Source: a plasmid
Length of the DNA stretch: 64,000 bases
NCBI RefSeq assembly: GCF_054482525.1
Contig: NZ_JBTHVG010000003.1
Strand: one strand, 5' to 3'
Position 1 is the stretch's first letter. Every line of letters starts with the position of its first letter. A program made the translations under genes and the position numbers. The notes under the pieces are model-generated. The model saw nothing but the letters and a program-made list of their open reading frames with translations, was not told where the DNA came from and searched no databases. Below are positions 42,734-60,860 of this stretch, piece after piece.

Positions 42734-43792
42734 ATGTCTAATGCCGCTATGAAGTTAAATGAAACATCTTCTGATGCTTATGAAAAATTAGAAGCTCTTC
42801 TTTCCCCGGATGTTATAAAGTTAAAACATTATGTGGATAAAGGTGAGTATCTTTTAGTTCTAGCAAAGGACCTTTTTGGTATTCCAGAAATGGATCCAAA
42901 GATGGCTGTGCCTGTTTTCAAAACTAAAACCTCGTATCGAGCTCCGCTGAACAAAGACTACATACCAAATCCCCGAATACTTGAACAAGTGGTTAAACTG
43001 CTTATCAGTCCGGATATAGATTTAAGTGTGTGTCTTAAAGGTGAGTCCGGTTCTGGCAAGACTGAAATGGTAATGTACATTAGCCACATGATGAATTGGC
43101 CGCTGACAATTAAGCAGATCAACAGCAATATTCGAGTTGATGAGCTTGAAGGTGAGCGCAGTCTTAATGGTGGTAATACAGGTTTTGTACACAGCGATTT
43201 GGTAACGGGATTTCGTAATGGTCACCTCATTCTTCTGGATGAAGTGGACAAAATCGATCCTGATACGGCAGCAAAACTTCACATGCCCATTGAACGTAAG
43301 CCCTGGTCACTCAGTGCTAATGGTGGTGAGGTTATAACTGCTAATGGCTACACGCGATTTATTGGTACTGCAAACACAAACATGAGTGGAGGCGCTCGCC
43401 GGTTCGTTTCTTCTCAACGTCAAGATGCAGCTTTTATAAAGCGGTTCTTGATAGTTGAAATGGAGAAGCCCGACAAAGTTGCTTTAACCAATGTGCTTAC
43501 TAAACGATATAGCTCTTTGCCTTTTCAGGTCATTGAGAAGTTCGTAAGAGTAGCGATTGCAGTAAATGACTCTGGTACAGAAGACAGTGTGATGGATATT
43601 CGTCAATTAGTAGCTTGGGTTGGCACGTCGATGACGTTAAAAACCTTTAGTCTTCTTGACACTTTCAAAATAGCTTTTGCTTCTGCTTTACCTTTACATG
43701 TGGTCGATCTTGTTCTTCAAGCTATAGATCTTTCTCTTGGCGAAGACAAGGATAAATCGCTGGAGTATTTCACAGCAAAAAAGTCGAGTTAG
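42734..43792 (+). CDS. MoxR/CbbQ/CobS-like AAA+ ATPase
   Basis: 352 aa. Walker A GESGSGKT, Walker B LILLDEVDK. Partner vWA gene two genes downstream. Confidence 0.8.
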   Translation: MSNAAMKLNETSSDAYEKLEALLSPDVIKLKHYVDKGEYLLVLAKDLFGIPEMDPKMAVPVFKTKTSYRAPLNKDYIPNPRILEQVVKLLISPDIDLSVCLKGESGSGKTEMVMYISHMMNWPLTIKQINSNIRVDELEGERSLNGGNTGFVHSDLVTGFRNGHLILLDEVDKIDPDTAAKLHMPIERKPWSLSANGGEVITANGYTRFIGTANTNMSGGARRFVSSQRQDAAFIKRFLIVEMEKPDKVALTNVLTKRYSSLPFQVIEKFVRVAIAVNDSGTEDSVMDIRQLVAWVGTSMTLKTFSLLDTFKIAFASALPLHVVDLVLQAIDLSLGEDKDKSLEYFTAKKSS

Positions 43793-44101
43793 ATGGGATT
43801 TGTTATGAAACCTCTGATATTTGTATCTCAGAGTTATCCCATCTTGAATTTAGTGCGTTTTTAAGTACGGATGGTGCTGCTACCATTGCTATAGCAAAAA
43901 ACGGAACTAATTTTACTGGACTTATGCAACTGAATAACGACTATTCTTTATTGTTTTATCATGATGGTAAAATAAATATGGAAGGTCTGATTAAACAAAT
44001 GGAATTAAAAGGTTATATGTATCAGGGAGCAATGGGCAATGATGATGTTGTTGCTGAGTTTCCCGGTATTCTTTTAATTTCACCAGAGAAGCTTTAATAT
44101 C

Positions 44102-44150
44102 AACCCTATCGGGAAATCTTTCCCGTTGGGGAGGGTTTCCCCTTTTTTTT
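44102..44150. repeat. Conserved palindromic intergenic element / putative terminator
   Basis: aaccctatcgggaaatctttcccgttggggagggtttcccctttttttt. Confidence 0.5.
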
Positions 44151-44160
44151 GGAGAAACCC

Positions 44161-45288
44161 ATGACTTTAAATACTTCAATGCTTAACAAAGTATCTGCAA
44201 AACAAATCTCTGAGAATTTTGCAAAATCATATCCAGATTTACTGGAAGGTGCAGTTATAACAAAAATTGAAATAAGTGGCTGTCAAGGATCGCGTCGAAC
44301 CGATAAAATCGATTTGTCTTATGATGGAGATGATATTACGGATCAAAAAAGCGTATCTAAAAGCGAAGTACGCTGGATTGACATAAAAGCCCTTAGCTTC
44401 AAAAGTACGATTACCAGCAGAATATCAACTCTTTGCTCACGCTTGTGCATCCGCTATAGCAATATGTGGATTTTACCAGTATCCAGTATGGAAGAGTTTC
44501 TGGAAGGGGCCCAAGAGATTGAACGAGAGTTTCAGGCAGGTATTCAAAACGTTGTAGACAATTATGAGATGCATATTGAGGCTGAAAAAAATAGAAGCCC
44601 AAGAATGTCTTCTTTGATTGATCAGTTGAAATTAACTAAAGATGATTTCATAAAATCCTTTAGATTTAATATTGCTCACTTTATTCCTTTTACGCCTATT
44701 AGCGTTGAAGGTGATGAAACCCAGGACTACTATCAGGAACAATTGATAACAGATCTGGCAGAAGAAGCAATGAAGGTTTATGAAAAAATTAGCAAAAATA
44801 ACAATTTGCGCTCAAGTACTATTGACCGACTGAAGCAAATGCAAAATAAGATCATTAGCTTCATGTTTATACATAAAGAGGCGGCAGTACTTGCAGAAGC
44901 TATAAAACACATAATGAATAATTTACCTAAAGGTGCCATTTCTGAACCTCGCGACGTTGCGGTGTTACAGCAGTGGTTTTATTTCATGAGTGATGCTTCA
45001 ATGTTAAAGCGTATTATTTCAGGAGAGCAAAAGGTTACTGACTGGTTGGAATCTATTACCAGATCATTTAATCAAAGCTCACAAACAGAACCGAACGCGC
45101 TACAGAACACAGGTATTGAAGCTATTTTAGATTCAACAAATGTGTTCCAGGTTGAACCTGTCGTAGAGAACGATATAAATAACAGCACGTTTTCAAACAC
45201 TGATCCTGTAGCTGAACCTGAGAAATCAGTTTCGCAACAGGAAGACAATGTTGAAAATGGTTTTGATATCGAGCTCAAAGGCTGGTAA
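44161..45288 (+). CDS. Hypothetical protein
   Basis: About 375 aa; ATG at 44161 with a GGAG ribosome-binding site. Lies between the AAA+ and vWA genes. Confidence 0.35.
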   Translation: MTLNTSMLNKVSAKQISENFAKSYPDLLEGAVITKIEISGCQGSRRTDKIDLSYDGDDITDQKSVSKSEVRWIDIKALSFKSTITSRISTLCSRLCIRYSNMWILPVSSMEEFLEGAQEIEREFQAGIQNVVDNYEMHIEAEKNRSPRMSSLIDQLKLTKDDFIKSFRFNIAHFIPFTPISVEGDETQDYYQEQLITDLAEEAMKVYEKISKNNNLRSSTIDRLKQMQNKIISFMFIHKEAAVLAEAIKHIMNNLPKGAISEPRDVAVLQQWFYFMSDASMLKRIISGEQKVTDWLESITRSFNQSSQTEPNALQNTGIEAILDSTNVFQVEPVVENDINNSTFSNTDPVAEPEKSVSQQEDNVENGFDIELKGW

Positions 45289-45306
45289 CTGTTTGCTTTA
45301 TTAAAA

Positions 45307-45350
45307 ACCCCAGATGGGTACTTCACCATCTGGGTGAGTACCCCTTTTTT
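45307..45350. repeat. Conserved palindromic intergenic element / putative terminator
   Basis: cccagatgggtacttcaccatctgggtgagtacccctttttt. Confidence 0.5.
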
Positions 45351-45365
45351 ATAAAGAGGTATTCT

Positions 45366-47378
45366 ATGAAATTAGATCTTAAATCATCACCGCGCCATAT
45401 TAAGCGTTTACAGAATATAGCAAAAGTCATTAGCGGCTTAGGCGATGTAAGAGTTGTAATAGACGACAATACCAAAGGACCGTATTTTGATCCTGTAAAT
45501 AAAGTTTGTGTTTTACCAAACGGCGATTATAGCGATGATGACTTTGTCAGTCTGATTGAAGGTTTTACCTGTCATGAAGCTGGTCATGGTCGCTATACCG
45601 ACAGCGAGGTTTACAGTGACGCCTTTAATAGTGTTCTCAAGTCATCTGAAGGGTTTACACGCTTCGATGACGGAATGAATGCAGAGTTTGAGAGCCTCGC
45701 TGAGAAACGTAAAGCTTATAGCAGGGCAAAACGTCTTACCGGGCTTATAAATCTGTTCGATGATGTACAGATGGAAGAGAAGGTTGGTAACGATTATCCG
45801 GATGCAAAGCGGCGGCTTGCAGCCACTTACGCACTGATGGTTAAAGCCGGAAGGATGACTCCTGATATATCTTCTCGTCCGGAAAATCCTGTCCTATTTA
45901 TTGAGTGGTATCTGCTTAACTCATTGCGAGTAAAAGTCCTTCAGCAGGCAGGTCACAAAGAAACACTCGATCCGTTTTTTGACTATGCCCAAAAGATACT
46001 TTCTCCAGTAATTTCTGATGTTGAGGAAATTTTTCATGATGCTCTTGGTTGTGAAAATACTCAGGGCTGTGAATCCCTTGCTCGTAAGACCCTGGCTCTT
46101 TTAGAGAGACTGCGGGATGAGGCAAGGGAACAACAGCAGCAGACAGAGCAGGAGGAGCAGGAGGCATATGATGAATCCGAGACCGATACCGATACCGATA
46201 CCGAATCAGAAGATAAATCGCTTGAGTCGACTGATAGTCGTGAGGATGATTCTGAGGACGATAGTGAAGGTCAGGCAGATACTTCCGATAACTCTGATCT
46301 TGCTCAAGAGGGATGTTCTGAGCCTTCAGAACTTGCTGAAGATAACGAGGGAAATAATGAACCCACCGGTGGCAATCCCACAGGTGATAACATTATTGAA
46401 GACGATACTGATGCGATTAACCCTTCCGAGAGTGAATCAGATGAAGCCAGTTCGACTAACGTTGAAGATGAAAGTAACTTTTCATCGGCTCAATGGGAGA
46501 TACTGGCAGATTTGTTGGATGCCTTTCTTGGCAGTGATGAGGATAGCGAAGATTATCACGATGCTTTGGCTAAAGAGATTGAAGGTATTGCATCAAAAGT
46601 ATCCGATGACGTGAAAGCCGAATTCGGTGCTTCTGAATGGGATATCCCTGATCTCCTTATCGATTTGAATGTTTACAATGAGGCTTTGTCTCTGAGTCAT
46701 TCAATCGGTAGCGACTTGTCTGTTTTACAGCAGGTTAAAATGCGTGGCCGAAACAAAACTCATGAGCGTGGAATTACCTTCGATGGAAATCGATTAATTC
46801 TGTCACCAATGGGAGTTCGTGATGTCTTCAGAGCTCAAAGCGAATCTAAAAATAGAGGGCATGTTGGCCTCGTATTAGTTCGTGATATTTCAGCGTCAAT
46901 GGCTAATGATGAAAGATATATTCATGCCATTAAGTCAGATCTTGCTTTATCGATGGCCGCTGAAAGTTTGTCAAAAATGCATGTCTCCAATATAGTCTTT
47001 CCCTTCAAGGAAAGTGAATTTGAGATTATCAAAACGTTTGATCAAAGCGTTGAGGAATCTCTATCGAAATTCACTCTTGGATGTAAGGGTTATTATACCC
47101 CTACGGGATCGGCTTTAATGGCAGCTGTTGATCTGTTACTTGACAGCCAATTCGATAGGAAAATAATTTTTCTTATAACTGATGGTTATCCGAATAAATC
47201 GGAATTTACTATCGGCGAAGTTATGGAAAAGGCTAAGTGTAATGGAATAGAAATCGTTGGTGTTGGTATTAAGACTGATGAAATAATTGGTTTTGAAACG
47301 GACACTTTCGTAACAGTTGATGATACTTCTTTATTGTCTATTGAAGTCAGTAAGCTAGTTCATCAAATACTTTCTTAA
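45366..47378 (+). CDS. von Willebrand factor A (vWA/MIDAS) protein, CobT-like, with a highly acidic low-complexity linker
   Basis: 670 aa. MIDAS DxSxS (VRDISASM). Central acidic tract (EQEEQEAYDESETDTDTDTESEDKSLESTDSREDDSEDDSE). Paired with an upstream MoxR-type ATPase. Confidence 0.7.
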   Translation: MKLDLKSSPRHIKRLQNIAKVISGLGDVRVVIDDNTKGPYFDPVNKVCVLPNGDYSDDDFVSLIEGFTCHEAGHGRYTDSEVYSDAFNSVLKSSEGFTRFDDGMNAEFESLAEKRKAYSRAKRLTGLINLFDDVQMEEKVGNDYPDAKRRLAATYALMVKAGRMTPDISSRPENPVLFIEWYLLNSLRVKVLQQAGHKETLDPFFDYAQKILSPVISDVEEIFHDALGCENTQGCESLARKTLALLERLRDEAREQQQQTEQEEQEAYDESETDTDTDTESEDKSLESTDSREDDSEDDSEGQADTSDNSDLAQEGCSEPSELAEDNEGNNEPTGGNPTGDNIIEDDTDAINPSESESDEASSTNVEDESNFSSAQWEILADLLDAFLGSDEDSEDYHDALAKEIEGIASKVSDDVKAEFGASEWDIPDLLIDLNVYNEALSLSHSIGSDLSVLQQVKMRGRNKTHERGITFDGNRLILSPMGVRDVFRAQSESKNRGHVGLVLVRDISASMANDERYIHAIKSDLALSMAAESLSKMHVSNIVFPFKESEFEIIKTFDQSVEESLSKFTLGCKGYYTPTGSALMAAVDLLLDSQFDRKIIFLITDGYPNKSEFTIGEVMEKAKCNGIEIVGVGIKTDEIIGFETDTFVTVDDTSLLSIEVSKLVHQILS

Positions 47379-47386
47379 TAAACTCT

Positions 47387-47423
47387 ACCCAATCGGGGCA
47401 AAAGGCCCCGGTGGGTCTTTTTG
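47387..47423. repeat. Palindromic intergenic element / putative terminator
   Basis: cccaatcggggcaaaaggccccggtgggtctttttgc. Confidence 0.5.
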
Positions 47424-47449
47424 CTCCATGAAGGAATAAGGAGCAAAAT

Positions 47450-47671
47450 ATGACTCAGATAAAAACTTACCGTGTAGAACATGAAAAAGTCGGTGCGATG
47501 CATAAAGTCCGTATTTTCGGACGTGTTGGTGAAGTTATAAGCAATGATAGCCCTCAGGAAAGAATCTTCCGCGAAGTCACTATAGCGGAGGGTAATAGCC
47601 AGCAGGCTGCGTTACTTGTAGATAACTACATACAGTGTCTTGAGAATAATGGCTTCACGACTGAAGCATAA
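47450..47671 (+). CDS. Hypothetical small protein
   Basis: 73-aa ORF flanked by two palindromic elements. AGGAG-like ribosome-binding site (aaggagcaaaatatg). Confidence 0.35.
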   Translation: MTQIKTYRVEHEKVGAMHKVRIFGRVGEVISNDSPQERIFREVTIAEGNSQQAALLVDNYIQCLENNGFTTEA

Positions 47672-47676
47672 ATGTT

Positions 47677-47700
47677 GAGGGCCCCCGGGCCCTCTTTCTT
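47677..47700. terminator. Putative intrinsic terminator (GAGGGCCCCCGGGCCCTC palindrome)
   Basis: Perfect GC palindrome followed by a T-rich run. Confidence 0.55.
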
Positions 47701-47784
47701 AAATTCTGCGTTGTGGGTTTCTCCCTGTCTTCTGCACCGCAGAAGGCATTGAGAAACTCACAATGCCAGATAAGAGAGATCATC

Positions 47785-49017
47785 ATGACTTATGCATCCC
47801 CGGCTCTTCGTCGTAATCCACAGGAAGTATCTGAACACTTTATTAAACTCGTTCATGCTCGAATTGCTGAAGTGTCTGGCTGGAAGTATATATTCGAAAG
47901 AATACCTGCTTTCAAAGACGCTTGTGCAAAAGCCCCGAGCCAGGTTCCTTGCCCGTTTACTGGCGCAGGGAAATCGAAGTTTCGTTTCCGACAAAAAGAC
48001 CTTTATACCGGATGTGCGATCCATAATGACTTTCCGGTAAATGAGTTTTGCGACGGAATTGATGTTCTGGCGAAATATTATGAATTAAGTAAAACGCAGA
48101 CTTGCAAAAAGATTCTCTCAGATTTTTTCGGGATGGATCTGCATGCTCCGTTAACTGACGCCGACATTGAAAATGAACGACGCTATAAATCAGCAGTTCG
48201 TGCCACAGAAACTCTTGACCGAGAGGAAGTGGCAAAGCGAATGCGAAAACTTGATGTGATGTATCACTATACCGGTGAAATCAAGCCTAATACTCCTGTT
48301 GCTTTGTACCTCCGTAATCGTGGGATCTCCCGCTTACTGAGTCACTTACCAAAGGATTTAGGCTTTAATAACCGGATCTACTATTGGGATAAAGATAAGC
48401 AGAAATCGATTATCTATCCGGGAATGATTGCGATCTATCGTGACACCCGAGGTCGGCCTCTGACTATTCATAGAACATACGTAGACAAAAATGGTGATAA
48501 GGCACCTGTAGAAAATCCAAAGCTGATGATGAAGCCTCCTGCCGATATGACAGGTGGCTCAATTCAGTTGTTTGACCCTCACTATGATTCAGGTAGTTCG
48601 ACCTGGACACTGGGAGTGGCTGAAGGGATCGAGAACGCGCTTTCTGTTGTAGAAGCGACTTCAACACCATGCTGGGCAGCCAGCTCCGCATGGTGCCTTG
48701 AAAACGTTACTGTTCCTGATTTTTTACTGCCTCCGCCGGATGTAAAATCTATAAACTTTTATATCTGGGCGGATAAGGATATTGCTAACTCACAAGGCAC
48801 TCGTGCCGGTATTGAAGCTGCTCAGCGACTTCAAAGCCGCATGGTTGAGTTTTTGGCTAAACGATATCCCGCATCAAAGCTGACAATTGAAGTCTTCGAA
48901 CCAGCACAAGATATTCCTGATGGGAAAAAGGGTATCGACTGGAACGATGTTCTCCAGTTAACAGGGCAGGATGGATTCCCGATTCACTGGGCTCCTGAAT
49001 GTCTTAATCAGCTGTAA
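47785..49017 (+). CDS. Primase-like protein (degenerate primase zinc-ribbon-like segment plus Toprim-like domain)
   Basis: PCPFTGAGKSKFRF resembles the CPxCGGxDRF primase zinc-ribbon motif. Toprim-like acidic motifs (LGVAEGIENA; IWADKDIANSQG). ATG at 47785 with an AGAGAG ribosome-binding site. Confidence 0.55.
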   Translation: MTYASPALRRNPQEVSEHFIKLVHARIAEVSGWKYIFERIPAFKDACAKAPSQVPCPFTGAGKSKFRFRQKDLYTGCAIHNDFPVNEFCDGIDVLAKYYELSKTQTCKKILSDFFGMDLHAPLTDADIENERRYKSAVRATETLDREEVAKRMRKLDVMYHYTGEIKPNTPVALYLRNRGISRLLSHLPKDLGFNNRIYYWDKDKQKSIIYPGMIAIYRDTRGRPLTIHRTYVDKNGDKAPVENPKLMMKPPADMTGGSIQLFDPHYDSGSSTWTLGVAEGIENALSVVEATSTPCWAASSAWCLENVTVPDFLLPPPDVKSINFYIWADKDIANSQGTRAGIEAAQRLQSRMVEFLAKRYPASKLTIEVFEPAQDIPDGKKGIDWNDVLQLTGQDGFPIHWAPECLNQL

Positions 49018-49028
49018 CAACGATAACT

Positions 49029-49052
49029 CCCCCGCTTTTTGCGGGGGGGGTT
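49029..49052. terminator. Putative intrinsic terminator after the primase-like gene
   Basis: cccccgctttttgcggggggg hairpin. Confidence 0.55.
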
Positions 49053-49887: not shown

Positions 49888-50766
49888 ATGAAGTTAGCTA
49901 CGGACCTGGTAAAAGCTATTTTGATTAGAAATGGCGTTGAACCAGTAAATATAAGCGAATCATCTAAGTTATCTTTGAAACAACCACTGACAGAACTTAA
50001 ATTCAGTTTATATTTGCGAACTGAGCATTTATCTCACTTCCTACCCGGTTATGTTTATTCTATAAAAGAATGTCCACTGTCATATGACATCGGGATCGAA
50101 ATTCAGAAAATCTTCGAAAGTTTACATTTGTTAAACGAAGAATTTGAATCCCTCGGTTTTGTTTCTGTATGGATAGAAATGCATCAAAGCATTTTTGAAC
50201 AAAGTCGGTTTAAGAAAAGTAACTTTACTTTTCGGGAGGAAGAGGTCGAGCTTGCTAAAGGGCTTGTTTGTTCTCACAATTCACAAATAAGTAATGCGGC
50301 TTATTTCTGGCTTCAGCACTTTGAGGAGTTTATGATTTATGTTCGTAATAAGCTTATCGACCTCTTTCGAGAGGCCTATGACCTGATCCTTGGAATGCAG
50401 CAAGTATTTTTCATTCGGGAAAAGGAAGAGCTGTTGAAAACTATAAGTTATGGCGATGAGCTGTATGAGGTGAAATTCATGGCGGCTGAGCTTTACTCTA
50501 TCGAACAGAACTTAAAGTGTTCTGAATCGATAAGTACAAAATCTCAAGCTTCGGCATATATTAACCGCATCCGTGAGTTTGTGCGTTCGGGGTGGAGGCA
50601 GGGCTATATAGTCTGCCATCATAAGCGAAGTAATCAAATTTCATCATTGTCATTACCGATGTACTTGAAAGATACGTCAGGCCGAAGTGCTCGAAAGCGA
50701 GTAAAACGTCTTATATCTTCTACAGTTTGTGGTAGAAATAAAGATTTAGGTCTTACAGATTTTTAA
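49888..50766 (+). CDS. Hypothetical protein, paralogue 1 of a five-gene tandem family
   Basis: 292 aa. N-terminal pattern (MKLATDLVKAILIRNGVEP...) shared with the next four ORFs. Confidence 0.4.
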   Translation: MKLATDLVKAILIRNGVEPVNISESSKLSLKQPLTELKFSLYLRTEHLSHFLPGYVYSIKECPLSYDIGIEIQKIFESLHLLNEEFESLGFVSVWIEMHQSIFEQSRFKKSNFTFREEEVELAKGLVCSHNSQISNAAYFWLQHFEEFMIYVRNKLIDLFREAYDLILGMQQVFFIREKEELLKTISYGDELYEVKFMAAELYSIEQNLKCSESISTKSQASAYINRIREFVRSGWRQGYIVCHHKRSNQISSLSLPMYLKDTSGRSARKRVKRLISSTVCGRNKDLGLTDF

Positions 50767-50776
50767 TTAAATTATA

Positions 50777-50820
50777 CCCATGTGGGGATCACACCCCATA
50801 TGGGAGTGATCCCTTTTTTT
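50777..50820. repeat. Conserved palindromic intergenic element / putative terminator
   Basis: cccatgtggggatcacaccccatatgggagtgatcccttttttt. Confidence 0.6.
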
Positions 50821-50836
50821 ATTGAGAGAGGATCAC

Positions 50837-51772
50837 ATGAAAATTATCGAAAAAATCATTAATGCCTTTTTGGTTGTTCAACATAAAAAAATACAGGTTA
50901 AAAACATTACATTTTTAGACAATGGGCAGGGCATGTTCTCTGGTATGTCTTTTGATGCTGATGTTTCACTGGAGTTTATGTATGAATCAGCAAAAGCATA
51001 TAGTTCTTGTTTCTGTGATATTCCCTTTCCAGGTTTTGAAGATGCAAATCTGGAGGAAATTACGAAATTTCAATTAGATGCTTTGAAGCAAAGAAAGAAT
51101 CATTCTTTCTTTGTTAACCATTTGAGGTTTCCTATAGTTTTAAGGGAAGGGTGCAAAATCGAAAGAGGAGAAGTCTATTCAATTTCGAATTGCACTTATA
51201 ATAAAGAAAGATTGCAGTATCTTTTTTCTCAGGATATTTACGGTAAGTTGTATAATTCCTTAGAGAAAGAATTAAGCTCGTTTTTCTCATTTATCAATGT
51301 TGAGGTGCACGAGTTGTTAAAAGATGCTGTATGCTTTGCATTAAAAATCCTGAATAAGATATCTTTGGATACACCTGAAAGACTTATTAAAGCTTTTAAT
51401 TATCGTGACTGGTATTGTAGTTACGATGTTGAGCTTTTTAGGAAAGGCTTACCTGGTCATATTCTGGAAGAGCTCATTGCTCCAGATATCTTACTTTCAG
51501 ACCTTAACGGTTGTAGAAAAATACTTAGAAATGCAAAACGATTTCTAAATGGACATACACAAACCAATTGTGTTTATATTAAATATGAATGGTGGTTGGG
51601 GCCTGTTGATACCTCACACTCAGCTAAGTTGATGTCTGACAAAGAAATTAATAACCGAAGTGACTTGAAGAATTTTTCAAAGGTCTTTTTCAAAGAGTGT
51701 TTAAGTTCTGGTAAGTCGGAATATGAAAACCATCTTAGTGAAAAAGAACATGCGCTTCGCTATAATTATTAA
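50837..51772 (+). CDS. Hypothetical protein, paralogue 2 of the tandem family
   Basis: 311 aa; ATG at 50837 after GAGAGAGGA; N-terminus MKIIEKIINAFLVVQ... Confidence 0.4.
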   Translation: MKIIEKIINAFLVVQHKKIQVKNITFLDNGQGMFSGMSFDADVSLEFMYESAKAYSSCFCDIPFPGFEDANLEEITKFQLDALKQRKNHSFFVNHLRFPIVLREGCKIERGEVYSISNCTYNKERLQYLFSQDIYGKLYNSLEKELSSFFSFINVEVHELLKDAVCFALKILNKISLDTPERLIKAFNYRDWYCSYDVELFRKGLPGHILEELIAPDILLSDLNGCRKILRNAKRFLNGHTQTNCVYIKYEWWLGPVDTSHSAKLMSDKEINNRSDLKNFSKVFFKECLSSGKSEYENHLSEKEHALRYNY

Positions 51773-51783
51773 TTAAAATTATT

Positions 51784-51823
51784 TTCTCCCATAGGGATTT
51801 CTCCCTATGGGAGAAATCCCTCT
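51784..51823. repeat. Conserved palindromic intergenic element (GGGATTTCTCCC / GGGAGAAATCCC arms)
   Basis: ttctcccatagggatttctccctatgggagaaatccctc. Perfect 12-bp arms with a 3-nt loop; same arms as the element at 41645-41690. Confidence 0.65.
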
Positions 51824-51840
51824 ATTAAGAGGGTATTGAA

Positions 51841-52761
51841 ATGAATGCTATACAAAAGTTAGTTGAATCTATTCTTGTTAAAATGGGTTTTGTTGGCGCT
51901 GTAGTGGAAAATATATATTTGGATTCAAAACCATTTCGGCATATTCGATTTGTGGCTGATATTCCAGTAATATCTTTTCTACCTCATTTGGTGAAATATC
52001 TTAAGGGTGCAGACCATCTTTACAGTGGTAACGATGATTTGCATCCTCTTTTCATTTATTTTTCCGAAGCGGCTACATTAAAAGCAGGTCCTGTAAATCT
52101 CGCGAACTTTCGTTTTGAAGTTTCTATAGCTTCAACTCATTTACGACTGGTCTCAGAGCAGCCTGATTTGCTTTTCAAAGGATTTAACCGGGATAATCTA
52201 GAATACGTTTATTACCGCTCAGATTTGGCCTCTAAGGATCTTATACTAGGCCTTGTTGAACACGGTTCTCCTTTCATAAAACATCTACATGGACTTATAC
52301 AAAAGCGAATTTTAAACGAGTTCTCTCTGATTTTTTCTGTTCTTGAAAAGATTTTAGAAAGCGCGAAGCCACAAATTCTTGCTTGCTTCCATAGTGTTGA
52401 TTATGAAATGAACGTAAAAATAATAGCCGAAGCTATACCTGAAACTGTATCTAATCAGATAGTCACATCTGATTATATAGTTAATTCTATATCAGATGCG
52501 GACAAGTTTATAAATCATGTTCGTCGCTATTTAGCAGGCAGGGTAATGAAGAGGCGGATATACGCTGAATTAGATGTTTGTGAAGAAACATCAAGTATTT
52601 CACTAGTGAACTTAGGATGCTTTACGTCTCCTCTGCTCGTTACGGAATATCAAATGTTTAAGCCACACTCTTCAGGGTTATATCGAAAAGCTATAAACAA
52701 CTCCTTAAAACAGTTCAAACCAGAAATGCATGTACCTTCTGAAGAACTCTTTTATAATTAA
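51841..52761 (+). CDS. Hypothetical protein, paralogue 3 of the tandem family
   Basis: 306 aa; N-terminus MNAIQKLVESILVKMGF... Confidence 0.4.
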   Translation: MNAIQKLVESILVKMGFVGAVVENIYLDSKPFRHIRFVADIPVISFLPHLVKYLKGADHLYSGNDDLHPLFIYFSEAATLKAGPVNLANFRFEVSIASTHLRLVSEQPDLLFKGFNRDNLEYVYYRSDLASKDLILGLVEHGSPFIKHLHGLIQKRILNEFSLIFSVLEKILESAKPQILACFHSVDYEMNVKIIAEAIPETVSNQIVTSDYIVNSISDADKFINHVRRYLAGRVMKRRIYAELDVCEETSSISLVNLGCFTSPLLVTEYQMFKPHSSGLYRKAINNSLKQFKPEMHVPSEELFYN

Positions 52762-52766
52762 TCTAA

Positions 52767-52810
52767 CCCATCCGGGAACCTGCTTCCCGGTGGGAAGCAC
52801 TTCCTTTTTA
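52767..52810. repeat. Conserved palindromic intergenic element
   Basis: cccatccgggaacctgcttcccggtgggaagcacttccttttta. Preceded by ATCTAACCCA, as is the element at 53879. Confidence 0.55.
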
Positions 52811-52827
52811 GTCATGAGGTAGTGTAA

Positions 52828-53766
52828 ATGTTTAAAGAATCTGACCACGTGGAATTTGTTAGTGCCTTTCTTTATCAAAATTTAGGCCTTAATGTTTCCG
52901 CTGACGATATAACCGTTCAATTATCTGATACTTCGTTCGACAAAGTAACCTTTGATTACGATGTAGATATCGATAATTTAAATTGTATGTTGGATCTCTA
53001 CATATCTGAGCTAATAAAGCACAACGCATCTTACTCCGATTCTATTCTTTTGAAACAAAAAATAATTTATTTTCTTGGAGTATTTAAGAATTTCGGATTT
53101 TTTACGTTTGATATTCGCGGATATAGTAATACTTTAAGCCCAGTTAAAGTTATTGATATTGTTTCAATGATTATTAATGACTGTGAAGAGTTATCTAAAG
53201 CTAATTCTTCTACTGATGCTATAAGAAATCTTTATCTCGATAAAATGAAGGTGGATGGGAAAGTGTTAGTTGCGAAATTTGCACTTAAACAGTTTTTTCA
53301 TTCCGACTTTGGTGACTTTATCTCATTTGTCGAGAAAAGAATTACAGATTGTCTTAATGAAACTTTAAGGATTATCAAAGCTGTTGAACATGGCTTTGTA
53401 CGTGTAGGGCAGCATAAGATTAATCGCCGTATTAATGATGACTTAAAGTTATGCATTGATTTCAATACTGATGATTATCCGGCAAATATGCCAGATATAT
53501 ATATTAAGTTTAACGATACATTTGATGGGAACGGGGCGTTATATTGTGACAATGATGCCCTCATATCCCTCTATACCGATGTTGCTTCAATTATCAATGT
53601 GCCGGTGATGATGGAAGTAAGATTGATCAATAAAAGAGGGCGTGTTGTCTGTGATTCTTCGCATTCAACTTACGTATCTCTCGAAAGTAATGACCGATAC
53701 AGAGTAACTGATCGCACATTACTAATAACTGAAGCTTTTGACGATTTTCGTAACGCGTCTCAATGA
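52828..53766 (+). CDS. Hypothetical protein, paralogue 4 of the tandem family
   Basis: 312 aa. Clearly paralogous to the next ORF (VDGKVLVAKFALKQFFHSDF versus VDGQVMIARFALQQFWDTHF; C-terminal DRTLLITEAFDDFRN versus DRNDLVSEVFDNLRN). Confidence 0.45.
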   Translation: MFKESDHVEFVSAFLYQNLGLNVSADDITVQLSDTSFDKVTFDYDVDIDNLNCMLDLYISELIKHNASYSDSILLKQKIIYFLGVFKNFGFFTFDIRGYSNTLSPVKVIDIVSMIINDCEELSKANSSTDAIRNLYLDKMKVDGKVLVAKFALKQFFHSDFGDFISFVEKRITDCLNETLRIIKAVEHGFVRVGQHKINRRINDDLKLCIDFNTDDYPANMPDIYIKFNDTFDGNGALYCDNDALISLYTDVASIINVPVMMEVRLINKRGRVVCDSSHSTYVSLESNDRYRVTDRTLLITEAFDDFRNASQ

Positions 53767-53878
53767 TCCTTTTGCTTCAGTCCAAAAAAGTAACTTTGGT
53801 TGGCTGAAGACACTTGTCTATGACAATGTAAAATCTGTCGCTGGCATCTTCTTTTAGCTTAACCAAATTTTTATCTAA

Positions 53879-53919
53879 CCCAGTGGGGAAGTCGCTTCCC
53901 TTCTGGGGCACTTCCTCTC
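53879..53919. repeat. Conserved palindromic intergenic element
   Basis: cccagtggggaagtcgcttcccttctggggcacttcctctc. Downstream ribosome-binding context GAGGTAGTGTA is shared with the 52828 gene. Confidence 0.55.
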
Positions 53920-53931
53920 AAATTCGAGGTA

Positions 53932-54894
53932 GTGTATATGACACATTCATCTGATGATAAAAACTATGTCCGAGCAGTTCTGAGTTATCTTGGCATAGAT
54001 TTTGATGAGGCGGATATAGTATTAAGTGTTTGCCATTGTCAAAGTGACGAGCTTTCTTTTACCTGTAATATCAAAGCTATTGAACTCAAGAATGTTGTTG
54101 ATTTATATGTCGATAGTATCTCTGAGAATGAAATAGAAGCTTTAAACAGAGAATCTTTAAAATCGCGACTCTGTTACTTTCTTGAGGTGTTTGACGCAGT
54201 CTCTGGTCAGTACCTTGAAATTTCAGGAAAACACTTTGCAACTAGTCGTTTTGAATATGATGATGTTTGTAGTGAAGTTCTTAGCATGTCTAATGATGTT
54301 TCTCAGTCGAAAGGTTATGACCGGGATGAATATAACAGACTGATGCAGGTTGATGGTCAGGTTATGATTGCCCGTTTTGCTTTGCAACAGTTCTGGGATA
54401 CTCATTTTATTGGACTAATAACATTTGTATCTGAGTCTATAACATCGAGCCTCTATAAAGCTTATGAAACTTTTAGTGATATTAGTTTGGCTTGCTATAA
54501 ACTGAGTGAATATTCTTATTCACGCTCTATCAACAGTGAATTGACCCTTAATATTTCACTTAAAGAAAATGACTTCTGTGAGGACCTATCTGATTGCTAT
54601 ATGGAAGATGAGGCTTTACCTTCTGGTAGGGTAATTTCTCGACGCAACAATGACTCCATAATAAGTATTTATGAGAGCTATGCTGCGGCTTCTTATATTC
54701 CGATGATTGCATCTTTGGAAGTCGTTGATGAATACGGCGAAGTGGTTACTGACCTCTGCCATACCGTTTATGTTTCAGAGTTAACCGGTGGGCGGATTAA
54801 AATCCACGACCGTAATGACTTAGTATCTGAAGTTTTCGATAACCTAAGAAATTTAAATCTTGCAGTTGGAGATTCAGTTTCACAAGCTGCTTGA
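53932..54894 (+). CDS. Hypothetical protein, paralogue 5 of the tandem family
   Basis: 320 aa; paralogous to the 52828 ORF. Confidence 0.45.
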   Translation: MYMTHSSDDKNYVRAVLSYLGIDFDEADIVLSVCHCQSDELSFTCNIKAIELKNVVDLYVDSISENEIEALNRESLKSRLCYFLEVFDAVSGQYLEISGKHFATSRFEYDDVCSEVLSMSNDVSQSKGYDRDEYNRLMQVDGQVMIARFALQQFWDTHFIGLITFVSESITSSLYKAYETFSDISLACYKLSEYSYSRSINSELTLNISLKENDFCEDLSDCYMEDEALPSGRVISRRNNDSIISIYESYAAASYIPMIASLEVVDEYGEVVTDLCHTVYVSELTGGRIKIHDRNDLVSEVFDNLRNLNLAVGDSVSQAA

Positions 54895-57478: not shown

Positions 57479-58459
57479 ATGAGCCTGGAGAAACGTATGA
57501 GTTATGACGATTTGCCCTATTTTCGTGACCAGATTCTGGAACGTATCGACTCGCTTAAGTGTTTTCTTTCGAACACCCCCCCGCTGATGGCAAACCTGAT
57601 GACTGTCTCCACCGTATCTCGAACAGAAGAGCGACTGAAGCAGGTTAAACCCATCAGGGTTAGTGTTAAAGACGATGCTTCGGTTGAGGAAATTATTCAG
57701 GCACTTACTGACATCTGTGTGGATGACATAGAGTCATTAAGTCATGATTCCACCAAAGTGACCACTAAATACCCGGGTCTTATCATTGTCCCAGAAAGAG
57801 CAGATCTTCTCGAAAGCTTGATCACATCTATAAATGAAGCAAAAAATGATTTTGCTGCGGCAATGAGGCGTATCGATAATAAAAAGAATGTCCGTTTTGA
57901 TAAAGTGCACAAGAAGCTCCCGGGCCTTGTCGCTATGCACTCAACAAGAAATGTCCTTTTCATCAAGTCCCAGCTTAAAAAAGTTACTTTTTCATGGCGG
58001 CTAAACCGAAACCAGGAAGTTAAAACAGCAGAGCAACTTGTGAGTTTGTTGGAGCGCAGGAGAGCCTCAGAAGTAAAAAATGTAGCAACTACCAATTTGA
58101 ATGTCGTGTCTAATATCGATAAGGCTTTACACCGTCTTGAATTTCACCCACTGAAGCAGGGCGAATCTTATCGCCTTTGTCGAACTAACTCTTTCCCTGT
58201 TCCGATTGCTCACATTTTTGCATTTAGGCCTGAAGGCCAGGAACGAAACGGGAATAAATATGCTGAGACTGATTATTCAGTAGTAAAAGCATCCTTGCCC
58301 ATTTTCGCAGCAGGCAACATACCTCAATTAAAAACGCTCTCTGACTGGGCTCCTGAAAACAGCCAGGGCCCGTCCAACCAACGGAAGCTGAGCCTGAAAT
58401 ATACAGAACTCGTGCCGGGGGCTGAGCTGGGCATTTTCATTGTCAGCCCCGAAAATTAA
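57479..58459 (+). CDS. Tus-like protein (replication terminus site-binding protein homologue)
   Basis: 326 aa. By-eye alignment to E. coli Tus in its signature region (FDKVHKKLPGLVAMHSTRNV versus [20 protein letters not shown]; FSW versus FGW). Similar length to Tus (309 aa). Confidence 0.45.
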   Translation: MSLEKRMSYDDLPYFRDQILERIDSLKCFLSNTPPLMANLMTVSTVSRTEERLKQVKPIRVSVKDDASVEEIIQALTDICVDDIESLSHDSTKVTTKYPGLIIVPERADLLESLITSINEAKNDFAAAMRRIDNKKNVRFDKVHKKLPGLVAMHSTRNVLFIKSQLKKVTFSWRLNRNQEVKTAEQLVSLLERRRASEVKNVATTNLNVVSNIDKALHRLEFHPLKQGESYRLCRTNSFPVPIAHIFAFRPEGQERNGNKYAETDYSVVKASLPIFAAGNIPQLKTLSDWAPENSQGPSNQRKLSLKYTELVPGAELGIFIVSPEN

Positions 58460-59675: not shown

Positions 59676-60860
59676 CTATTCATCAAAGGCATTTCGCATA
59701 AGCTTGATCATTGCTTTTTTACCAGCTTCAATATTACGAATGTAGCGCATAACCATTTCTTCATTCGACCAGTTCCCCATTTCCATAATCTGTGGTAGCG
59801 AGTAACCTTCAATATTTAGCTGTATCGCTCCGCCTACACGAACGCTGTGCCCTGTCCAGTAACGAGTTTTAGTCTCATTTGGATAAAGCTCATTCCACAT
59901 CTCTTTAAATGCTCGTAAAAGGGAATTTTTGCTGAGCATACCGGCATCGTCCACAGTGTCTTCTTCATCTTCATCGTTCAGAAGACTTTGCTTAGCACGA
60001 TAGGGTAGGTTATGCCTTTTAAGAAGTTCAGATAGCTCATTCCCCTTACTCCGAAGCTTCCAGCCGGGTGGCATATAGCCTGTATCATGGAAATTTACGG
60101 CCTGGAAAAGGAATTCATCCGGATGACTGTGCTGATCCATTTTCACGAGGTTCATCAATCTCAAGAGGCAGTTAGTTAACTGACGTGTCAGCCGGTAGGT
60201 AAGAAGTGTACTAATGTTCGTTTTTGTACGGTATACCGTCAGGTTAAATTCACCGGTCATACTATCCAGAGACAGATCTTTCAGACGTATACGTCGAATT
60301 TCGGATGAACGGAGCAGTGTTTCAAAGCCTGTCCAGATCAGGCACAGGTCACGAAGTTTACGAACTGAGTTTGTAGTACTGCGTAACTTTATCAGAGCCT
60401 TGAGATCGCCAATAAGAAAGGGAGTTGCCTGTTTAGTCGTCTTTCGCTTCCGGGCTTCCGATTGTTTTAAGGCTTCCAGCATGTACCATGCTTCAGACGT
60501 AATAATCCCGGGCAGGTTAAGCCCTTTTTTATGGATACTATTTAAGGCCTGAAGACAGCTGTTTATGCTGCTTCGTGACAATTTGCCTTCAAGATGCCCC
60601 ATAAACGCAAGCAGAGCGTCCTCAGACACGGGGAGCGAACTTACTGGCCAGTCTGTATGCAACCGGGCATTCGCCAGATACCATTCGTTCCATACTCGTA
60701 GCCAGTGCAGATAGGTTTTAGCAGTGTTGTATCTCAGATGGGAAAAGTAACGGATCAAGCGTGAAAGCTGTTTATCATGGTTGCCGAACGTTTCCAGCTG
60801 CTGATGCAATTCGCTTTCCGAAAACTGTCTGATCACTGATTGATTCTTCATCCTGCTCAC
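59676..60860 (-). CDS. Tyrosine site-specific recombinase (phage-integrase / XerC-D-like family)
   Basis: 394 aa. C-terminal catalytic region with a conserved His-x-x-Arg (HSVRVGGA) and a terminal Tyr (MRYIRN). N-terminal SAM-like core-binding region. Confidence 0.75.
   Translation of the reverse strand: MSRMKNQSVIRQFSESELHQQLETFGNHDKQLSRLIRYFSHLRYNTAKTYLHWLRVWNEWYLANARLHTDWPVSSLPVSEDALLAFMGHLEGKLSRSSINSCLQALNSIHKKGLNLPGIITSEAWYMLEALKQSEARKRKTTKQATPFLIGDLKALIKLRSTTNSVRKLRDLCLIWTGFETLLRSSEIRRIRLKDLSLDSMTGEFNLTVYRTKTNISTLLTYRLTRQLTNCLLRLMNLVKMDQHSHPDEFLFQAVNFHDTGYMPPGWKLRSKGNELSELLKRHNLPYRAKQSLLNDEDEEDTVDDAGMLSKNSLLRAFKEMWNELYPNETKTRYWTGHSVRVGGAIQLNIEGYSLPQIMEMGNWSNEEMVMRYIRNIEAGKKAMIKLMRNAFDE

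Follow-up and report, generated by a model that had tools for sequence, protein, structure and literature searches.

The plasmid primases TraC1 and Sog are transferred to recipient cells, where they prime the transferred strand, and catalytically active DnaG-like primases of mobile elements share, as a synapomorphy of their Toprim domains (Pfam Toprim_2/3/4), the so-called DaN- motif (PMC5512222). In the phage T7 gene 4 primase and bacterial DnaG, the template trinucleotide is recognised by a zinc-binding domain, which also stabilises the complex of primase, template, and nucleoside triphosphate and passes on the primer; T7 protein without this domain makes random dinucleotides only, at a very low rate (PMC2910064). 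Metazoan Twinkle, in which the zinc cysteines and the catalytic residues have both been lost, is not a primase (PMC5737085). The gene considered here lies at positions 47785–49017 of a plasmid-derived stretch of 64,000 nucleotides (the window: RefSeq assembly GCF_054482525.1, contig NZ_JBTHVG010000003.1). It encodes a 410-residue homologue of these primases, predicted to be an active, stand-alone plasmid enzyme whose zinc ribbon folds without canonical zinc.

The open reading frame (ORF) coincides with a RefSeq coding sequence, and the encoded protein is 100% identical in more than 1,100 IncHI2 plasmids:

47785..49017, + strand: primase homologue gene of the IncHI2 backbone, from ATG (47785) to the end of the stop codon (49017), 410 residues, WP_000220381.1.

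On the whole protein, Pfam recognises DUF7146 at residues 153–253 (E 2.2e-19) and Toprim_3 at residues 276–396 (E 2e-12), and the PHROG 510 profile, 'DNA primase', matches residues 54–395 (E 1.4e-27). The AlphaFold2 (AF2) model, built from an alignment of 71 homologues (predicted local distance difference test [pLDDT] 91.8; predicted template modelling score [pTM] 0.77), matches the T7, DnaG, and T4 primases in structure comparison, and all named matches in a Foldseek comparison with viral models (BFVD) are phage primases of the Toprim/DnaG type. An NCBIfam scan of the 410-residue protein gave no match, and a PDB sequence search with the single protein returned chance matches only; a PDB search with the family profile gave weak, in-register matches to the Toprim and zinc-binding domains of DnaG (E 0.1–1), which are consistent with the relationship and are not taken as evidence for it. 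The initial annotation, made from the letters alone, had given exactly these coordinates for the ORF and had called the protein primase-like, and the domain, profile, and fold matches bear this out: the gene product is a primase homologue of DnaG/T7 type, and its family is the Toprim_3 family of conjugative elements, to which RP4/R751 TraC, I-type Sog, and the phage P4 alpha protein belong.

From the alignments and the model, the predicted architecture is as follows:

47872..48138, + strand: N-terminal module with primase zinc-binding-domain fold, residues ~30–118 (helices, a beta-hairpin at 66–68 and 78–80, then helices).
48139..48240, + strand: helical linker from ribbon module to polymerase domain, residues 119–152; the least conserved segment (AF2 model and codon comparison).
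48241..48543, + strand: N-terminal subdomain of the RNA-polymerase domain, Pfam DUF7146, residues 153–253, with conserved R179, H229, R230, K239, and K246.
48610..48972, + strand: Toprim domain, Pfam Toprim_3, residues 276–396.

Around the linker, the model places helices at residues 125–142 and 146–161. The DUF7146 subdomain and the Toprim domain together form the primase fold of an RNA-polymerase domain. No helicase or C-terminal helicase-binding domain follows: the protein ends ~14 residues past Toprim, with a single short helix in the AF2 model and no further Pfam domain.

Three motifs mark the catalytic centre:

48619..48639, + strand: A-E280-G-I-E283-N-A, counterpart of the plasmid-primase EGYATA motif (Toprim glutamate motif); both glutamates invariant.
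48772..48780, + strand: D330-K-D332, the Toprim DxD metal-binding motif, which aligns with the DSD of Bacillus subtilis DnaG.
48937..48948, + strand: D385-W-N-D388, the DaN- motif of mobile-element DnaG-like primase Toprim domains (residue conservation; PMC5512222).

Among the 71 homologues, which reach down to 25% identity, E280, E283, and D330 never vary; a single alternative residue is found at D332 and at D385 (position 332 being Asp in all but one sequence), and D388 varies (A/D/E/N). D385-W386-N387-D388 is conserved in the IncHI clade, as are R179, H229, K239, and K246 of the polymerase N-subdomain among homologues. The Toprim-like acidic motifs reported by the initial annotation are therefore still in place, and the catalytic centre, with its full set of acidic metal ligands and conserved basic residues, is judged from this conservation to be intact.

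The N-terminal module presents a different picture. A homologue search of 5.8 billion proteins found 76 homologues; the first 19 (P0001–P0019), which come from IncHI-like plasmids of Enterobacterales and share 40% identity or more, contain PF13362 and PF23639 only, and the primase zinc ribbon, PF08273, is additionally present in the majority of the more remote homologues. In the IncHI protein, Pfam finds no zinc ribbon at E<=1 over the whole length, and PF08273 is unseen at E<=10 on residues 1–150, whereas CHC2 and C4 relatives run as controls in the same scan score 1.2e-12 and 2.6e-14. The homology of the module emerges from profiles: when the N-termini of the IncHI clade and of zinc-ribbon-bearing relatives were realigned separately and the resulting profiles compared with hhalign, they matched with a probability of 97.7% (E 2.2e-12), and a hidden Markov model (HMM) built from 24 zinc-bearing relatives only matches residues 33–110 of the protein (E 5e-6). 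Two knuckle remnants can be placed from the alignments and profile alignments:

47950..47988, + strand: remnant of zinc knuckle 1, C56-PFTGAGKSKFRF-68 (C56 to F68); the Cys of ligand 1 survives, Thr stands at ligand 2, and Ser-Lys takes the place of Asp-Arg, with a one-residue insertion.
48004..48057, + strand: remnant of zinc knuckle 2, Y74-TGCAIHNDFPVNEFCDG-91 (Y74 to G91); H80 as ligand 3, ligand 4 lost.

Both profile methods give the same register for the first three ligands, with C56 as ligand 1, T59 at the lost ligand 2, and H80 as ligand 3 (a change from Cys to His); the ligand 4 position falls on F83 (HMMER) or V85 (hhalign), beside an insertion of 2–3 residues. The ancestral states in the alignments are CPxC-GGxDRFRF...CNxCG (C4) or CPxH-GGxDGFRLF...CNTCG (CHC2), and the IncHI clade has CPF[TS]G-x-GK[ST]KFRF...[C/S/H]AIH[ND][DE][FY]P...F[C/V/I/S]DG. 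The initial annotation had set the N-terminal segment in register with the pattern CPxCGGxDRF, with the second Cys and the Asp-Arg replaced, and had quoted the strings now placed at nucleotides 47950–47988 and 48004–48057; register and replacements alike (T59; Ser-Lys) are upheld. Nor does an intact ribbon occur elsewhere in the protein, which contains 8 Cys and 9 His, no CxxC, and a single Cys/His-x2-Cys/His pair (C77-A-I-H80). The four-ligand arrangement (CxxC/H...CxxC) is absent, and the homologous fold and position—an N-terminal ribbon followed by helices—are present.

Within the clade, C56 is kept in 17 of 19 members, the two most divergent (P0019 and P0020) having Asp, and H80 likewise in 17 of 19; position 59 is T/S/G/A. 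Neither C77 nor C89 is in register with the ancestral ligands, and both positions vary: position 77 is C/S/H/G (P0011 and P0012 have Ser, P0019 and P0020 have Gly, and IncHI1B relatives have His), and position 89 is C/V/S/I/P, 11 of the 19 members having V, S, I, or P. Because of this variation at positions 77 and 89, no four-ligand zinc site is, on the present alignments, conserved in the IncHI clade, and only C56 and H80 remain in register.

Codon comparison among the IncHI2, IncHI1, and IncHI1B genes indicates that the degenerate module has nonetheless been maintained. Residues 50–95 are the best-conserved segment between IncHI2 and IncHI1, at 87% identity, with a proportion of nonsynonymous differences (pN) of 0.056 against a synonymous proportion (pS) of 0.75, the latter saturated; between IncHI2 and IncHI1B they are 57% identical, compared with 45% for the whole protein. 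The linker (residues 119–152) is the least constrained part, with 26% identity between IncHI2 and IncHI1B and a ratio of nonsynonymous to synonymous rates (dN/dS) of ~1, while the whole gene has a dN/dS of ~0.10 between IncHI2 and IncHI1. By these measures the ribbon module is under purifying selection and is the most strongly conserved part of the protein. A pseudogene or decaying-relic reading of the ribbon was rejected on the pN/pS and identity of residues 50–95.

Loss of zinc ligands is not confined to the IncHI clade. The family comprises 28,422 representatives at 50% identity (E<=1e-3), and the ligand survey covered 146 newly retrieved sequences among the 150 best-scoring of these. CHC2 sets are found in 95 of the 146, C4 sets in 28, other four-ligand sets in 7 (e.g., CPxPxxH...CxC), and incomplete sets in 16, examples of the last being CPVHGG...GGGVSNKDG and CPVNGG...ISN. 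In P0186, CPKTGEGKDSFRLY...GGGVHNDP (CPKTGEGK...VHNDP) closely mirrors the IncHI pattern, and a rhizobial clade (P0057–P0075) has no Cys ligands at all. Because of the 16 incomplete sets, the Cys-less rhizobial clade, and the lack of a zinc ribbon in R751 TraC (see below), zinc-site loss is, as read from these sequences, recurrent in the primases of plasmids and of integrative and conjugative elements (ICEs). A canonical C4 member, P0045, adjoins a helicase gene in a phage genome. A homologue on IncA/C (IncC) plasmids, e.g., NC_016974.1 106920–107537, matches residues 171–399 only, that is, the polymerase domain, at 35% identity.

The favoured explanation, to which a probability of roughly 0.6 is attached, is that the protein is an active, stand-alone DnaG/T7-type plasmid primase with a ribbon predicted to fold without canonical zinc; it is favoured because the catalytic set is kept, unlike in Twinkle, and because of the likeness to TraC and Sog. 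Aromatic residues and the 2–3 residue insertion (F83, P84, F88) probably fill the former metal site, and the ribbon would still do the job of the zinc-binding domain by securing both the single-stranded DNA (ssDNA) template and the newly made dinucleotide at the polymerase cleft. The ribbon hairpin is more basic than in canonical members (GK-S-K-F-R-F-R-Q-K versus GKDRFRF), and these residues (K63, K65, R67, R69, K71) may aid clamping of ssDNA and may relax sequence specificity, which would suit priming of an incoming plasmid strand. Its most likely role would be to prime single-stranded plasmid DNA; as with TraC and Sog, the chief case would be synthesis of the complement of the transferred strand when IncHI plasmids conjugate.

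Several points weigh against this reading. The plasmid-primase survey of Lanka and Barth in 1981 reportedly did not place IncH among the primase-positive groups; a negative result for IncH could stem from the temperature sensitivity of IncHI transfer functions. Neither biochemical nor genetic data for WP_000220381.1 were found in the literature. The gene adjoins Tra2, and its early entry into the recipient hinges on position relative to oriT. Finally, loss or alteration of the T7 zinc-binding domain abolishes template-directed primer synthesis (PMC2910064), and therefore a zinc-less ribbon could be non-functional for initiation.

Of the rival explanations, the one that survives best keeps the active primase and has it still binding zinc, through a rebuilt, non-canonical site consisting of C56, C77, H80, and possibly C89 or water or an Asp. 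The initial annotation had raised such alternative Cys/His ligands, and C77, H80, and C89 do exist: C56, C77, H80, and C89 are present in the protein and in every one of its nearest relatives (72% identity or more), the C77-x2-H80 spacing is knuckle-like, the His at position 77 in IncHI1B relatives is still a possible ligand, and relatives tolerate varied ligand spacing (CPxPxxH...CxC being an example). A three-ligand site of C56, C77, and H80 may be present in the IncHI2 protein itself. The full set of four is, however, not conserved in the clade, owing to the variable C77 and C89 and to the Asp at position 56 in P0019 and P0020; C77 and H80 lie on one beta-strand (78–80), three residues apart, which is unfavourable for joint coordination; and both profile methods place hydrophobic residues at ligand 4. 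A rebuilt site is for these reasons considered rather unlikely.

Less probable still is a non-catalytic derivative, with the fold kept for binding of DNA or protein only, like the N-terminal region of metazoan Twinkle. The loss of zinc ligands parallels Twinkle (PMC5737085), and T7 protein minus its zinc-binding domain lacks template-directed synthesis (PMC2910064). Twinkle, however, also lost its catalytic residues, whereas here E280, E283, D330, D332, D385, and the DaN- motif are invariant or nearly so, and the whole-gene dN/dS of ~0.1 between IncHI2 and IncHI1 speaks of purifying selection. The initial annotation had left the choice between a primase with altered zinc coordination and a non-catalytic derivative; the first is favoured, with only one of the four Cys kept in register together with one Cys-to-His change, and the second is disfavoured.

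Equally improbable is a non-primase Toprim enzyme, such as a nuclease or nucleic-acid-processing factor, working with a cassette of AAA_5, DUF3150, and VWA genes in some other establishment or conflict function: the cassette lies upstream of homologues at 45%, 32%, and 30% identity, Toprim domains also occur in nucleases and topoisomerases, and a Klebsiella homologue is labelled 'topoisomerase' in one GenBank record, but other family members are without the cassette and adjoin helicases or methylases, and no significant match to a PADLOC defence family was obtained. Membership of a defence system was rejected, the best PADLOC-DB match being partial (14 bits, E 0.004) and to the DnaG-like region of a DRT model, and a topoisomerase or nuclease reading was rejected on fold grounds.

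An extension of the preferred reading, an active primase with a zinc-free ribbon, is put forward only tentatively and is considered rather unlikely: in IncHI and other ligand-poor lineages, the ribbon would be a zinc-independent module for recognising template or partner, allowing sequence-relaxed priming on incoming ssDNA, perhaps within an 'establishment' cassette with AAA_5/DUF3150/VWA.

The DNA matches, at 100% identity, large conjugative plasmids from Salmonella, Escherichia coli, and Enterobacter, which number more than 1,100 and are typed as IncHI2/IncHI2A, MOBH, and MPF_F; therefore, the window is IncHI2 backbone. Upstream of the primase gene are the Tra2 transfer genes (trhB...trhN, trhI), and the primase gene itself belongs to a long same-strand block of uncharacterised genes. 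RefSeq names its product 'toprim domain-containing protein' or 'DUF7146 domain-containing protein', and annotation of the family is inconsistent across records (CP031372.2 21458–22645 versus RefSeq), with 'topoisomerase', 'toprim domain-containing protein', 'DUF7146 domain-containing protein', 'hypothetical protein', and 'putative DNA primerase' all in use; the last is attached to the IncA/C homologue, and none of these annotations flags the ribbon module. A search of the literature on IncHI plasmids, their primases, and DUF7146 found no paper mentioning the gene. It is annotated but uncharacterised, and is a member of a known family without one classical defining feature, the four-ligand zinc ribbon. 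Its immediate surroundings hold three candidate signals:

47772..47779, + strand: Shine-Dalgarno-like purine-rich AAGAGAGA, 5–12 nucleotides 5′ of the ATG, read directly from the sequence.
47677..47694, + strand: GC-rich hairpin with a T-run after it, lying between the primase gene and the 73-residue ORF upstream (terminator-like scan).
49027..49049, + strand: GC-rich hairpin of 9 pairs (8 of them G-C), 10 nucleotides past the stop codon (terminator-like scan).

An in-frame GTG at 47713 was rejected as the start codon, since homologues start at the ATG, the Shine-Dalgarno-like sequence precedes the ATG, and a hairpin lies at 47677–47694. Between 47300 and 49400, 9 terminator-like hairpins occur against 1.6 expected from shuffles, and the two GC-rich ones bracket the primase gene; these two may act as terminators or attenuators within the same-strand block, in the gaps between its genes.

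The upstream syntenic block was annotated with Pfam and is given purely as genomic context:

42734..47671, + strand: upstream syntenic block as a whole.
42734..43792, + strand: AAA_5 (MoxR/CbbQ-like) ATPase.
44161..45288, + strand: DUF3150 protein.
45366..47378, + strand: VWA/CobT-like protein with a long acidic linker.
47450..47671, + strand: 73-residue ORF.

The order AAA_5, DUF3150, VWA/CobT-like recurs beside primase homologues at 45% (an IncHI1B Klebsiella plasmid), 32%, and 30% identity; the latter two are on metagenomic elements, one of which also has SSB (a protein that binds single-stranded DNA). Beside other family members the cassette is absent. No literature was found on DUF3150.

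Downstream of the primase gene, five consecutive ORFs of 292–318 residues follow within 49888–54894, all annotated as hypothetical:

49888..50766, same strand: first downstream ORF.
50837..51772, same strand: second downstream ORF.
51841..52761, same strand: third downstream ORF.
52828..53766, same strand: fourth downstream ORF.
53938..54894, same strand: fifth downstream ORF.

Pfam gave no match in the two of the five that were scanned. The last two are paralogues detectable by BLASTP (27% identity, E 2.5e-37), the only such pair, and the other three may be more distant copies. A few kilobases 3′ of the primase gene (~57479–58459 and 59676–60860, − strand), the RefSeq annotation of an identical plasmid gives a Tus-like 'DNA replication terminus site-binding protein' and a tyrosine recombinase, an arrangement also present in the IncHI1B plasmid.

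Among the main vehicles of mcr-1, mcr-9, and further genes for multidrug and metal resistance are the IncHI2 plasmids, and an invariant gene of their backbone is labelled in databases only as 'toprim' or 'DUF7146'; recognised as a probable plasmid primase, it adds a candidate function in post-conjugation establishment. Natural primases with a conserved zinc-binding-domain fold minus the zinc ligands also offer a system in which the structural contribution of zinc to DnaG-type primases can be studied apart from template recognition. Specialists will find this unsurprising, IncP TraC already being without a Cys-based zinc site and ligand loss being recurrent in the family.

Among the described systems compared, metazoan Twinkle has an N-terminal primase-like region that has also lost its catalytic residues, whereas the IncHI protein keeps them all and has lost the zinc ligands. 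To the T7 gene 4 primase fragment and bacterial DnaG it shows 13%–15% sequence identity; it lacks both of the features that these possess, a C4 or CHC2 zinc site and, at the C terminus, a helicase or helicase-binding domain. The zinc-bearing DUF7146/Toprim_3 primases of ICEs, plasmids, and phages (PF08273 + PF23639 + PF13362; the type of the P4 alpha N terminus) have the same three-module architecture and are collinear with it, at 27%–33% identity over 82%–91% of its length and with the ribbon in register. They differ in possessing CPxC...CxxC or CPxH...CNxC, with PF08273 scores of 1e-12 to 1e-14, whereas the IncHI protein has C...H only and no PF08273 match.

The remaining comparison is with TraC of R751, the IncP-beta orthologue of the classical RP4 primase. 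BLASTP did not detect the relationship, identity between the two proteins being too low, but hhalign finds the polymerase domains homologous (E 3.8e-5), with a shared Toprim_3-type domain in which ISEGYATA of TraC aligns with AEGIENA, YLQAKGI with YLRNRGI (YLxxRGI), and the DGxK motif likewise. As hhalign aligned the polymerase domain only, no claim is made that the TraC segment upstream of it is a zinc-less ribbon. In R751 TraC, Pfam detects no zinc ribbon, and the last ~1,250 residues contain just one Cys; it is a protein of 1,448 residues with ArdC-N, a zincin peptidase, and DUF5710 repeats. TraC (IncP RP4/R751) and Sog (IncI1 ColIb-P9/R64) are large polyvalent proteins, whereas the IncHI protein is a solo enzyme of 410 residues; TraC and the IncHI protein are alike in being plasmid-borne, in their type IV secretion system context, and in having no Cys-based zinc site.

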